The notes below the pieces were generated by a model. The model was not told where the DNA came from, searched no databases, and saw only the letters and a program-made list of their open reading frames with translations. Below, one piece after another: positions 15,723 through 29,439 of a stretch of 64,000 nt of DNA. Numbering within the stretch: the stretch's first letter is position 1; the number at the start of each line of letters is the position of its first letter. Position numbers and translations under genes: made by a program. Origin of the DNA: Chiloscyllium plagiosum (taxonomy: Eukaryota); the NCBI RefSeq assembly GCF_004010195.1, contig NC_057726.1, forward strand, positions 57,977,559-58,041,558, in the 5' to 3' direction.

Positions 15723-15818
15723 CTCACTCCAGCTGATCAGTTCATTGCTCTCGGGGTCCTCCACCAAAGTCCACAACTTGGTGAGGAAGGCGGGCACGTT
15801 AGCGCTATATCCATCCAT
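15723..15818 (-). CDS. HSF4: Heat shock factor 4, first coding exon (start could extend to in-frame ATG at 15884)
   Basis: MDGYSANVPAFLTKLWTLVEDPESNELISWSE followed by donor GAG|gtgaga; the VPAFLTKLWTLVEDP motif is diagnostic of HSF DNA-binding domains; joins exon 2 in frame across a ~13-kb intron. Confidence 0.9.
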
Positions 15819-21055: not shown

Positions 21056-21183
21056 ACAAGATCAGAAGGATGTTGCTAATGAATGTACGAGATCAAACTC
21101 CCAGTCTTGTCCCCAGTGCAGCAAGACCTGGACAGCATTCAGGCTTGGACAGAAAACTGGCAAGTAACATTGAAGCCATATAT

Positions 21184-21208
21184 GGTGGGAGTAACTATGA
21201 CTCTTTTA
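21184..21208 (+). rRNA. 25-nt 28S rRNA fragment immediately upstream of the R2 target site (not an rRNA gene)
   Basis: GGTGGGAGTAACTATGACTCTTTTA vs conserved 28S GGCGGGAGTAACTATGACTCTCTTA(AGG): 23/25 identical, both differences C>T. Confidence 0.85.
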
Positions 21209-21354
21209 GACACGTCTGTTTTGGGAATCTTGCCTGGCTAGTTCCTGCTCAGTAGTTTTTACACAATTTTGTCTGCTGTAGCAAATGGCATTCCTCCTCG
21301 AGGTTCCGGCTGGAAAGAGCACTCCTCTCGGCTATTGGATGGCTAAATATGACC
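21184..21354 (+). ncRNA. HDV-like self-cleaving ribozyme of an R2 5' end (decayed)
   Basis: P1 5' GGUGGGA (21184-90) / 3' UCCGGCU (21305-11) with a G-U wobble at the cleavage site; P3 UCC/GGU; L3 UCCUCGA; J1/4 GG; J4/2 GCUAA (catalytic C at 21343); P2 GGCAU / AUGaCC. Confidence 0.75.
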
Positions 21355-22497
21355 TAGAAAAATTGCGAGACGGCTGTTTGGTCTGCATGGATCACAACTC
21401 TTATCCTCCAAGTATCACACACAAAAAAGACTATACAAGATGGAGACAGTTAAAGACTCTCATCAGTCCCGTAGGGATGTGTCTCGGAAGAAAATAACCT
21501 CCCGGCAGGCTTAGTGGTAGTGACCTGTGAAAAGTGCAGATACCACATTAGAAGAGAATCCATCTCCACCCAAACACAGGAGATGGCAGAGAGTCCCAGC
21601 GTATGCATCCCCATTAACTGTGTGAGTCAAGGTCGGGTCAGGCCGATAGGACCTAGAGTGGCCATAGAAGACACAAAGCCTGTCGTAGAAGAGAATATGA
21701 GGGCAGCCCTCCCTATGGATCAGGTTATCGCAACTCAAATCTTCTACAACAGAAGATACAACAAAAGGGCTAACAAGATATATGAGCTATTGGACACAGA
21801 CATCGGAGATGACGACTTATATCGATCCAGTCATAACTGAGCCCTCATTTGACAAAACAAGGAGGTCACGATCCACTATCCTACAGATGGTCTGTTTTGT
21901 GTAATCTGTAACTCCCTCCTTCCAACCATAGGGGCATTTAGACAACATTTAGTCAAGATACATCAGGTCAAGAACATTCTTAAAATGCAAGAGCAAAGAA
22001 TATCACGCTATCGAATGTCACTGCATGAAATGTAATGGCACTGGCCCTTCTAAACTATCAGGAGCCTTCACATGCTCAGGATGCAAGTTAACATTCACAT
22101 CCAACACTGGCCTTGGCCAATACAAATGCAATAAGCATGCAGAATATCACAAGGAGGAGCACCTAGAGTGCCTCAAGACAACAGCCAGACCAGGAAATGG
22201 ACGGAAGAAGAGACAAACCTTGTCCATTAGTTGGAACAGCAGTATGCAGGTTGCACCTTTATCAACAAAAAGATAGCCAGTATCCTAACTACAACACACT
22301 TCAACAGATCTCGGACAAGTGTAGGACACTGCAAAATAACAATGAGGGACCCCAAGCCACAGTGACCAAACCTCCAGAGACCACCCTAACAGAAGACTCT
22401 GAAGACAAATCCTCAGGTGTCCAACAGCAAAAAAAAAAGTCAGACTGCCCACCTGCACTCCTAAACACCAAGATTTGGATGACTAAATTACACAGAA

Positions 22498-24469
22498 AAA
22501 GAGAGAAGTGGGAAGTTGTGTATGGACGCTGTGGAGATCGGAGAGGTGCTAAACAAATATTTCTCATCTGTTTTCACTCAGGAAAAGGAGAATATTGTAA
22601 AGGAGAAGAATTAAATACAGGATATTAGACTAGAAAGGATCGAGGTTTGTAAGGAAGAGGAGTTATCAATTCTAGGAGTGAAAGTAGACAAATCCCCTGG
22701 GCCAGATGGGATTTGTCCGAGGATTCTCTGAGAAGCTAGGGAGGAGATGTTGGAGCCTTTGGCCTTGATCTTTGAGTCATCATTGTCTACAGGTTGAGTA
22801 CCAGAGAACTGGAGGATTGTAAATGTTGTGCCCTTGTTCAAGAAGGGCAGTAGAGATGACCCAGATAATTATAGATCAGTGATCCTTATGTCTGTTGTAG
22901 GAAATGTTTTGGAAAGAATTATAAGAGACAGGATTTATAATCACCTAGCAAGTAAAAATTTGATTGTAGATAGTCAACATGTTTCGTCAAGGGCTGGTCA
23001 TGTCTCACAAACCTCATGGAGTGTTTTGGGAAGGTGACCAAGCACATGGATGAGGGTAGGGCAGTTGACGTGGTGTACATTGTCTTCAATACAGCCTTTG
23101 ATAAGGTTCCACATGGTAGGCTGTTGGAGAAAATGGAGAGGCATGGGATTGAGGGTGATTTAGCAGTTTGGATAAGAAACTGGCTTTCTGTAAGAAGGCA
23201 GCAAGTGGTGGTAGTCTGGAGTCCAGTTACTAGTGGTGAGCCACAAGGATCTGATTATATTAGATTAGATTCCCTACAGTGTGGAAACAAGCCCTTTGGC
23301 CCAACAAGTCCACACCGACCCTCCGAAGAGTAATCCACCCAGACCCATTTCCCTCTGACTAATGCACCTAACACTGTGGGCAATTTAGCATGGCCAATTC
23401 ACCTGACTTGCACATCTTTGGACTGTGGGAGGAAACCGGAGCACCCGGATAGAAACCCACACAGACACGGGGAGAATGTGCAAACTCCACACAGACAGTT
23501 GCCCGAGGCTGGAATTAAACCTGGATCTGTTTTGGGACCACTGGTATTTGTCATTTTTATAAATGACTTGGACACAAGCATAGGTGGATGGGTTAGTAAG
23601 TTTGCAGATGACACTAAAGTCAGTGGAGTGGTGGACAGTATGGAAGAATTTTGCAGGTTGCAGGGGGACTTGAATAAACTGCAGAATTGGGCTGAGAGAT
23701 GGCAAATGAAGTTCAATGCAGATAAATGTGAGGTGATTCACTTTGGTAAGAATAACAGGAAGGCAGAATACTGGGTCAGTGGAAAGATTCTTGGTAGTGT
23801 GGATGTGCAGAGGGATCTTGGAGTCCATGTACATAGATCCCTGAAAGTTGCCACCCAGGTTGGTAGTGCTGTTAAGAAGGCATACAGTGTGTTAGGTTTT
23901 ATTGGGAGAGGGACTGAGTTCCAGAGCCGCAATGTCATGCTGCAACTATACAAAACGCTAGTGCGGTCACACTGTGTACAGTTCCGGTTGCCCCATTACA
24001 GGAAGGATGTGGAAGCATTGGAAAAGGTGCAGAGGAGATTTACCAGGATGTTGCCTGGTCTGGAGGGAAGGTCTTATGAGGAAAGGCTGTTCTCATTGGA
24101 AAAAAGAAAGCTAAGAGGGGATTTGATAGAGACATACAAGATGATCAGAGGATTGAGTAGATAGTGAAAGTCTTTTTCCTAAGATGATGATGTCTGCTTG
24201 TACAAGGGGGCATAGCTACAAATTGACGGGTGATAGATTTAAGACAGATGTCAGAGGCAGGTTCTTTATGTAGAGAGTGGTAAGGGTGTGGAATGCCCTG
24301 CCTGTCAATGTAGTTAACTCAGCCACATTAGGGACATTTAAACAATCCTTGGATAAACACATGGATGATGATGGGATAGTGTAGAGGGATGGGCTTAGAT
24401 TAGTTCACAGGTCGGCGCAACATTGAAGGCCGAAGGGTCTGTTCTGCGCTCTATTGTTCTATATTCTAT
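22498..24469 (+). mobile_element. CR1 LINE (RT through 3' UTR) nested in the R2 remnant
   Basis: PLFKKGSRDDPDNYR, AFDKVPHGRLL, SKFADDTKV, RGDLIETYKMIRG, tail TATTGTTCTATATTCTAT. Confidence 0.9.
23254..23522 (-). mobile_element. 5'-truncated HE1 SINE inserted in CR1 with 7-bp TSD
   Basis: GGATCTG at 23247-23253 and 23523-23529 flanks the SINE and splits the CR1 PQGS-VLGP motif. Confidence 0.9.
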
Positions 24470-24689
24470 GAAATGCACATCAAATTATGTTTCTGGCCAT
24501 GGCAAACTAACTGGGGCGGCCTGTTGGCTCTGCATTTCCCATTGCACAGTGGCTGCTTTAGAAGATCATTGCTGGTGCATTGGCCCGGGATGTCCCTAGT
24601 CCCTTCACCCTTAGATACTCTGGCTACATGGAATTTCTAAAACATCAACAAGTGACATTAAAACTTGATTATGGCAAGTGTTCAAAATT

Positions 24690-25340
24690 GCAAAGCAGTG
24701 AACACCACAAGAAAGCAAGAATCCAACCAGCTCCCTTTGATGTCCATTCCCATTGCTGAGCTCTCCACAATCAACATCCTGGTGCTAACTATCGACTAAA
24801 AACTGAACTGGACCAAAAGCATAAATACTGTAGCTACAAAAGCAAGTCAGACTCTCAGAATTCAAGGGAGTAACTCATTTCCGACACCTCAAAGCCTGTC
24901 CACACTCTACAAGGCACAAGACAGGGATATGCTGGAATTTTCCTAATTCTTTGAATAAGCGCAGTTCCAACAACACTCAAGAAACTCAACACCATTCAGT
25001 ACAAGGCAGCCCACTTGACTGGCACTACATCCATCACCTTAAACATTCACTCACTGCATTATCATGCAGATAGGTATGTATTATACATAAGATAAACTGC
25101 ATCAACTCAACTAAGCTTCTTCAAACAGTACTTTGCAAAGCCCTATCCTATACCACCTAGAGAAGGAAGCACAGTAGATACATGGCTTAAAATCCTGGAA
25201 TTCCTTTCATAATGGTATTGTGGGTGTAACTGGACCAAATGACTTAGTGGTTTAAAGAGGCACTCACCCACACCTTCTTAAAGGCAGCTAGGAACAAGCA
25301 GCAAATGCTGGCCTTGCCACAGACACCCACAATTATAAAA
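24690..25340 (+). mobile_element. L2/CR1-group LINE 3' part; continuation of the piece at ~21110-21183
   Basis: Homologous to 25800-26490 and to the minus copy 45250-46750 (CTCAAAGCCTGTCCACACTCTACAAGGCACAAG). Confidence 0.65.
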
Positions 25341-28028: not shown

Positions 28029-29007
28029 TCATCGGAGAATTGCTGGGAGCCATGGGTGTGGCTCTTTGGAGGTTTTCAGTGTGTACTTGCAGAGTCTGGG
28101 ACAGTGGAGAATGAAAGCTTGCACAACATCTACGGACACCACACAGTAGCAATGAATCTCTTCCAAAGACAAGCAGCAAGATGCCAGTCTCATCAAGGCC
28201 CGGTTCAGTTCTCCAGAGGACGTTGTTTGCAGAACAATCCTTTTTAACGTGTTGTGATAGTTCTGAGAGATAAAGTTGACTTGCTCCACCATAAACGTAA
28301 AGGTACTTAATTCTAGGCTGGCCACTGGGATAGTAGGCTGCAGAATTTGGGGTATTTTCTTAGCAGGGACTGTATGGTCCAGCTCGATGTCCACAGAAAG
28401 AGTTGGGTATCTCTCCGCCAGAGCTTGCCACATCTCAGCTGAGATAGTTGGATTGTATTTATCCATGCGCTCGCAGTGTAGCTGAAGGAGTTTGAATGGT
28501 GGACGCTTGGCATTCAGGAGCTCGGCCACGACATTTTCTGTCAGGCTTGCATAAAACAATCCCAGAGCAGACAGGTTCGGGCAACTCCTCAGGGCCTCCT
28601 GAAGAGTTTCAGAAGTCACCTTACACACAAACGTCTTGTTATTGATGAAGAGACTCTCCAGAGAGGGACTTCTGCTGGTGACAATTTGGATGATGCCATC
28701 ATCCAAAGTGAACGGCATTTCTCGGAGGTCAATGTGCCGGAGATGTAGATAGGAGGCTGCTTTAAATACACTTTTGACACTTTGCAGCAAGTCTTGCCCG
28801 GAATAGAAGTAAGGGTTTTCACCAATACACACAACGGAGAGGCCCAACAGATCCGTTGCCGATTCCGACAAGTTGTGTAGAATTTGGATAAAGTTCTTGC
28901 GATTTGCTTCTAAAGACTGATTGCACACGATCTTCAGATATTTGATATGACACTGGAACCGTTGGCATGCACGCACATTCTGGTCATTTTCCGCTCCAGA
29001 GTCACAC
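28029..29007 (-). CDS. FBXL8: F-box/LRR-repeat protein 8, last coding exon
   Basis: Acceptor tttgctgtcag|G at 29007 (phase 2); CIGENPYFYSGQDLL, LRHIDLREMPFTLDD, ILQPTIPV, LEEIHCYCVVS, CPRLCKYTLKTSKEPHPW match recalled human FBXL8; stop at 28029. Confidence 0.95.
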
Positions 29008-29439
29008 CTGACAGCAAAAGTACAGCAAACAGTCAGTACAAAGATATCACGTGAACAATGCACAATCCAGAGACAAAATGGTGAATTAAATATCATCCTG
29101 CTGTAAGCCTGGACTACATCATCCTAAGACTATGTGCATTTGCTGGCTGCTCTAGCATCGACTGCTGTGAACAAGGATCAAATTGGAGCTTAGTAAGGAT
29201 TTAATCATCTAAAAAATGTGGTTATAGACAGATAGCAGTGTCATTTCAGGATCATGCACAAGCACTGATCCAGCATGTTGTATGTGAACATGGAATGAAA
29301 AAGGATTAAATGGAGCCACAGATACAGACTTCACTTCACCCAATGAATACTCCAACTTTTCCCTCTGGACTGACACCAAAAAGCACATAATTAAACACAA
29401 TAGCCACATGTACCTAGAATGATGCAGCCTTTCAACTCA

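Follow-up and report, generated by a model that had tools for sequence, protein, structure and literature searches.

The 171 bases at positions 21184 to 21354 of the 64,000-nucleotide stretch of Chiloscyllium plagiosum DNA analysed here (the window) represent the 5' terminus of a decayed R2 element with three zinc fingers, which runs from 21184 to ~24686. This element is a broken, dispersed copy, very probably derived from an rRNA co-transcript that was cut by an HDV-type ribozyme and reverse-transcribed into a 28S-like site within a LINE. An orphan ribozyme and a SINE composed of leader plus ribozyme were considered as candidates and rejected, as an R2 ORF and an R2 3' UTR come after the ribozyme (Table 1). 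The window locus by itself is a dead copy; the value lies in the series of sister copies, among which near-intact natural ribozymes exist.

Table 1. Features of the R2 copy and its host LINE (positions in the window)
Feature	Position	Strand	Basis
Left half of host LINE	21061..21183	+	Aligns with uninterrupted copies; AGTAAC in 28S -22..-17 register
28S-derived leader, -28..-4 relative to R2 site	21184..21208	+	23/25 identical to the genome's 28S
J1/2 region, R2 5' UTR	21209..21286	+	Alignment with L041, L042 and other copies
HDV-type core: P2 5' strand, P3/L3, P1 3' strand, P1.1 GG	21287..21313	+	Sequence and sister-copy alignment
Damaged P4, J4/2 with candidate catalytic C21343, P2 3' strand	21314..21354	+	Comparison with L041/L042
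Decayed R2 ORF N-terminus: ZnF3 (CCHH), ZnF2 (CCHC), ZnF1 (CCHH), Myb	21481..22293	+	tblastn
Other LINE with nested short repeat, at the place of the R2 RT/endonuclease	22496..24470	+	RVT_1 hits, read depth
R2 3' UTR, A-run end typical of these R2 families	24476..24686	+	69% identical to L041 3' end, E 8e-15
Right half of host LINE	24687..24900	+	No target-site duplication; deletion of ~1 base at most

Anatomy of the window copy

Alignment of the leader to the genome's own 28S sequence (locus L010) showed identity at 23 of 25 positions, and one of the two mismatches is a CpG transition. The 20 bases immediately 5' of 21184 match the same reference at just 6 of 20 positions; therefore, 28S homology ends at 21184. 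Both the match just upstream of the R2 site, beginning at -28, and its abrupt end had been called in the original prediction, and both were borne out. An 18-mer leader pattern had 20 matches across the 3.56-Gb genome, and its reversed control had none.

The first seven bases of the leader form the 5' strand of P1. The HDV-type core that had been predicted ~100 nt downstream was recognised there by sequence and by alignment with sister copies. Its P2 5' strand (21287-21291) lacks one T relative to L041/L042 and is followed by P3 (21292-21294/21302-21304, with U x U as the top pair), which encloses the L3 loop UCCUCGA (21295-21301). P1' (21305-21311) leads directly into the GG of P1.1 (21312-21313), and P2' lies at 21349-21354. 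P1' pairs with the rRNA-derived strand at six of seven positions, as predicted, including G.U at the first pair; the third pair is U.G and the fourth position is G x G. The U at 21292 is common to the nearest sister copy, L041, so the U x U of P3 need not be a lesion. The residues expected of an HDV-like ribozyme are present by sequence: the candidate catalytic C21343, T21295 and G21300 of L3, and the cleavage-site G21184. P4 shows a gap of ~6 bases and substitutions relative to L041/L042. The double pseudoknot of the window copy thus has P1 at 6/7, a bulged P2, P3 at 2/3 and a broken P4. The suggestion of possible residual activity is doubtful, given that P2 is one base and P4 ~6 bases short, on top of the mismatches in P1 and P3. 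We predict that the ribozyme is probably inactive or nearly so, and that it has no host role.

A post-hoc HDV descriptor found this core and no other in the window, with any hit in 6 of 200 shuffles, though it had been tuned on the window core and an equally good chance P1 partner was found at 21142. No HDV family was matched in Rfam scans covering the region and four loci. The minimum free energy fold of the region was unremarkable (z 0.88), single-sequence folding being uninformative for a pseudoknot, and the core folded no better than shuffles (z 0.25). A covariance model built from the family-B cores described below placed the window core at the right coordinates with E 0.24 (below significance; rank 2 of 13), and matched two other older-group copies at E 4e-4 and 1e-3. 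The original prediction had proposed a covariance-model hit as its check and the lack of one as its refutation. By that measure it formally failed; however, the missing hit does not refute the identity of the core, because homology to better-preserved copies settles it.

The ORF remnant downstream carries stops and frameshifts, and matches a family-B protein at E 6e-25 and a family-A protein at E 3e-9. Its best PDB matches are the R2 proteins 9nl3, 9dou and 9nl2 (E 1e-5 to 2e-4), and the ZnF3-ZnF2-ZnF1-Myb order that is the hallmark of lineage-A R2 is recognisable, though decayed. Homology to the nearest sister, L041, stops at ~22495, and read depth rises to high copy at 22496, where the interrupting LINE (presumably CR1-like) begins. 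RVT_1 domains were matched in this LINE at 22974-23330 and 23334-24161, and it contains a nested short interspersed repeat at ~23250-23530. An R2-type RT and a restriction-like endonuclease are absent from the window copy. Since RT pieces are found in the nearest sisters L041 and L042, and the family-B RT matches R2 structures (9nl2, E 1e-65), their loss reflects decay of the window copy. The earlier reading of the locus as an R2 fossil is supported in part; it had missed the ORF start, the 3' UTR, the host LINE and the dozens of sister copies.

The element sits outside rDNA, as predicted, within a LINE that we take to be L2-like. The two flanks form one continuous alignment with L092:618-915 and with window 46043-45813 on the minus strand. 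Copies of the host without the insertion have AGTAAC 16 bases ahead of the insertion point, the same as in 28S, with T following that point (hand count). At the 3' junction the host rejoins at the nick within ~1 base, with T at +1 and no target-site duplication. The window copy is not at the canonical 28S insertion site; its relatives L043, L094 and family A are.

Sister copies and their 5' ends

The window copy belongs to a small, old group that includes L041, L042, L043, L028 and L136. Two further families were delineated: family B, with at least 43 matches (40 of 51 candidates scored), and family A, with at least 41 (40 of 111 scored), both counts being lower bounds. At least 43 dispersed family-B copies were seen at one or both ends. 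At least 32 family-B copies have a 5' end; one of these, L094, has 28S on both sides and the other 31 are dispersed. Their starts form a wall: 14 lie at -28, one at -29 and 16 at -27 to ~-20 (one of the 16 placed by eye), and none of the 31 begins further upstream than -29. This count was restricted to copies found by DNA search with a query that itself contained the leader; copies found by the leader pattern were left out because they had been selected for the leader. Several of the short 5' starts join the host through microhomology (by eye). The pattern is that expected if the RNA began at G-28. L050 (1463, minus strand), one of the 14, begins at the internal copy of the leader found in the L033/L076/L077 subfamily, and looks as if it had been cut at the second of two P1 sites.

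We applied the HDV fold to 26 of 33 family-B copies; seven were excluded because they had deletions, gaps or duplicated leaders or because their anchors were uncertain. The five helices were paired in 89% of cells, as against 25-49% when the fold was slid along the sequences. One P4 pair is compensated (UA in 10 copies, CG in 9). Of five covariation measures, two were not above shuffles (95 and 349 of 500), in a control that ignores relatedness. The catalytic C is conserved in 25 of 26 copies, the U in 24 and the G in 21. Five copies are best preserved: L095 and L146, with every cell of the five helices paired, and L076, L036 and L037, each with a single unpaired cell, in P4. Judged from sequence, family B would form the double pseudoknot that defines the HDV type.

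Family A provides an internal contrast. Its P1' (UCCCCCU or CCCCCC) is complementary not to 28S but to a GGGGGGA G-run at the element's own start. Among 30 family-A loci, 10 are flanked by 28S, five lie behind another R2, five have no readable 5' end and 10 are dispersed. None of the 10 dispersed copies has the -28 leader; six begin in the G-run (L163, L165, L171, L174, L177 and L180) and four within 2 bases after it. Head-to-tail tandems occur at L152, L158, L159, L162 and L179. Since family-A copies lack the leader and start at the G-run with which their P1' pairs, the fossil 5' ends appear to follow the P1 partner in both lineages, which are two lineages and not independent samples. The family-A start is likely, by sequence comparison, a diverged duplicate of the -28 leader; a route from leader duplicate to shifted cut site is modelled in Fig. 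8 of PMC3774820. We make no claim of ribozyme activity for family A, in which the assignment of P2 and J4/2 is ambiguous. The central proposal of the original prediction, that the locus is a cDNA fossil of R2 RNA self-cleaved at -28, appears well supported by the -28 pile-up and the contrasting family A.

Target sites, rDNA origin and alternative explanations

The off-target sites share features with the 28S target. In 17 of 38 copies RAGTA is found no more than 32 bases upstream of the junction, compared with 50 of 1051 control windows, for a motif picked after viewing the flanks and with two duplicated-leader copies excluded. Without shared-host copies the count is 13 of 30, and five control motifs were not enriched. 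Of 29 3' junctions, 28 have T at +1 and 25 have A at +2. Of the 43 dispersed family-B copies, 11 (by eye) occupy one site of a LINE, which we take to be CR1-like. These are L029, L030, L031, L084, L085, L088, L091, L185, L186, L202 and L205; at their site GGGAGTA stands no more than one base out of the 28S register, with GTAACTA just ahead of the nick and TAG behind it, and the insertions use two nick positions that are 2 bases apart. Four copies from three R2 groups, L090 and L093 (family B), L140 (older group) and L154 (family A), share a second host site, which lies in another repeat.

Evidence of rDNA origin comes from copies that retain 28S. Both L094 (family B) and L043 (the window's clade) have 28S on both sides. 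Long upstream 28S is present at L034, L043, L094, L135 and L139, on large contigs away from the assembled rDNA arrays; downstream 28S was also found for L034, L043, L094 and L135, but not for L139. At L132, L134 and L022, 28S fragments have only ~60 bases of R2 3' UTR replacing the target site. At its 3' junction L204 (G000:C7 near 90779330) carries 14 bases of downstream 28S, followed by unrelated sequence; this tail may be a fossil of the RNA's own 3' tail. Across three strata, the leader at -28 to -12 differs from 28S in 1 of 148, 17 of 280 and 5 of 94 cells, with starts curated by match and some old copies found through the leader itself; in the two older strata, CpG accounts for half or more of the differences. 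The catshark element R2-1_SCa, which is catalogued and 28S-flanked, has a similar 5' UTR and a P1' of CCCCGCU (by eye). These comparisons suggest that rDNA-resident master copies are the likely source.

We propose the following sequence of events. A master copy within 28S rDNA would be co-transcribed, and P1, formed from 28S -28 to -22 and P1', would allow the RNA to cut itself 5' of G-28, as the fold and the 5'-end statistics suggest. An R2 protein would then nick an off-target site that carries T at +1 and, in the 28S register, bases resembling AGTAA, a pattern that is observed although the mechanism behind it is proposed. The full-length cDNA was joined there with its leader intact and without target duplication, as the junctions show. 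The decay now visible followed: frameshifts, loss of the RT and endonuclease at the later LINE insertion, and the lesions in P1, P2 and P4.

A different account, which we consider unlikely, holds that the lineage has partly left the rDNA: dispersed masters transcribed by read-through would have inherited the 28S leader, the ribozyme would trim the 5' end, and the family would have relaxed specificity. The at least 43 dispersed family-B copies, with their ladder-like age series (end branches 0.03 to 0.17), fit such masters, as does the recurrent CR1-like site (11 of 43, by eye); however, the excess outside rDNA is explained by the poor assembly of rDNA and by its purging of old R2s. R2 families without target specificity have been described (PMC5035012), and the assembly holds no 28S-flanked copy that is a young family-B member or a close sister of the window copy. 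Nonetheless, both the B clade and the window's clade have a 28S-flanked member (L094 and L043, respectively) and L204 has its downstream-28S tail, the leader is still 28S-identical across strata, and junction duplications of the rDNA-site type recur in young B copies.

It is very improbable that the host has kept the ribozyme to act on an antisense or intergenic transcript between its neighbours. These are HSF DNA-binding exons on the minus strand, of a gene named HSF4 in the original prediction (one near 15790, a weak Pfam match at E 0.005), and an FBXL8-like exon at 28032-29123, also minus, the flank that had been predicted as FBXL8. The catalytic C, L3 and GG are still there and the insertion is common to a related species (organism B), but the R2 copy lies on the plus strand, antisense to both genes, and P1, P2 and P4 bear lesions. 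The orthologous insertion differs at 52 of 1439 bases, at least eight of them inside the 171-base finding, whose divergence is no lower than that across the dead ORF, and P1 position 21308 itself differs between the two species (T in organism B). These differences would fit neutral decay with no extra conservation. A host-domesticated ribozyme was rejected on lesions, strand and divergence. Separately, the window's GT at 21218-21219 (J1/2) reads CC in all three contig runs, the other species included; the GT is either a private allele or a mistake in the assembly. A sample of about 2% of one poly(A) single-cell run gave no reads over 21185-22495, a result that carries no weight as evidence. 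Among the loose ends listed from the read comparison, none was a 28S-joined form.

Least probable is recombination or DNA-level capture out of rDNA, with the -28 boundary a chance breakpoint: orphan 28S fragments with R2 inside do lie on chromosomes (L034, L043, L094 and L135), but they have long 28S on both sides whereas the window copy has none at its 3' end, the host LINE is continuous across the window copy, and this clean empty site and the -28 start common to 14 of 31 sister copies largely refute it.

Insertion of a ribozyme-cut, rDNA-derived R2 transcript remains our preferred explanation of the window copy. More tentatively, and with less than even confidence, we suggest that the copies together make up a time-layered R2 fossil record. 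It would hold the in vivo cuts of two coexisting lineages, one of which moved from -28 to a diverged internal leader duplicate with a compensating P1 change, and a lineage-A off-target code (AGTA in 28S register, TA at the nick) that makes the CR1-like LINE site a recurrent second target. If true, this would be a fossil R2 record of a kind that rDNA turnover erases elsewhere.

Relation to known R2 elements

Publications already cover the -28 cut, shark R2s and stray copies of R2; the apparent novelty is the series of in vivo 5' ends and off-target sites. Our literature search found no paper on dispersed shark R2 with a -28 wall, although one could exist in subscription journals, in Repbase or in the other four supplement files of PMC13188248. 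For the -28 cut in a vertebrate R2, where the literature cited here offers in vitro assays or predictions, the series would supply evidence from the germline, in vivo. It also records where lineage-A R2 proteins, the class employed for transgene insertion, have inserted off target in nature.

In the commonest configuration described for R2, the cut falls at -28 and P1 is 28S-derived (PMC3774820). HDV-like -28 cleavers are reported there from earwig, the jewel wasp Ng, silkmoths and flour beetle, with zebra finch predicted (Eickbush, Burke, Eickbush 2013, PMC3774820). The shark ribozymes resemble those described in having a P1 5' strand that starts at -28, a P1 of 6-7 bp, the L3/P1.1 core, the catalytic C in J4/2, a long J1/2 containing the R2 junction, and leader junction duplications. 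The published ribozymes were mapped in vitro and are rDNA-resident; in this work the site is deduced from dozens of dispersed copies, and the window copy is decayed.

Vertebrate lineage-A R2 is represented by R2Tg (PDB 9dou), with 9nl3 and 9nl2 as further R2 proteins, and the shark elements share its ZnF3-ZnF2-ZnF1-Myb order. Shark R2s have been catalogued (PMC5035012, PMC12247875, PMC13188248), including R2-1_SCa, R2-1_CPl and R2-1_CPu (PMC13188248, Table S2). R2-1_CPl and R2-1_CPu contain the family-A core string, and the R2-1_SCa 5' UTR resembles that of the window's lineage; the family-B core string is absent from 12 of the 16 supplement files of PMC13188248. The catalogued elements are defined by their 28S flanks, whereas the window copy lies outside rDNA and has lost its RT and endonuclease.

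Stray copies have been reported from silkmoth (Xiong et al. 1988, as cited in PMC10499050), non-28S R1 and R2 insertions from Drosophila (Stage and Eickbush 2009, PMC2718515), and mutated R2 remnants outside 28S from birds (PMC5035012). In the Drosophila work, the 28S sequence carried along by R1 strays served to infer the ends of the RNA template (PMC2718515). The shark copies resemble such strays in their partly 28S-like sites, often in repeats, but differ in comprising dozens of full-length vertebrate R2 copies with a sharp, P1-tied 5' wall and recurring host sites. R2NS-1_SMed and R2NS-1_CSi (PMC5035012) are likewise dispersed outside 28S; however, those families lost specificity, whereas the shark lineages have 28S-flanked members, a 28S leader and 28S-like targets. 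Extant locations can mislead about specificity (PMC13580325). The sites that the zebra finch protein hits off target in human cells reportedly have little in common with rDNA beyond the primer-pairing bases (PMC11371274); unlike them, the shark off-target sites have an upstream motif too.
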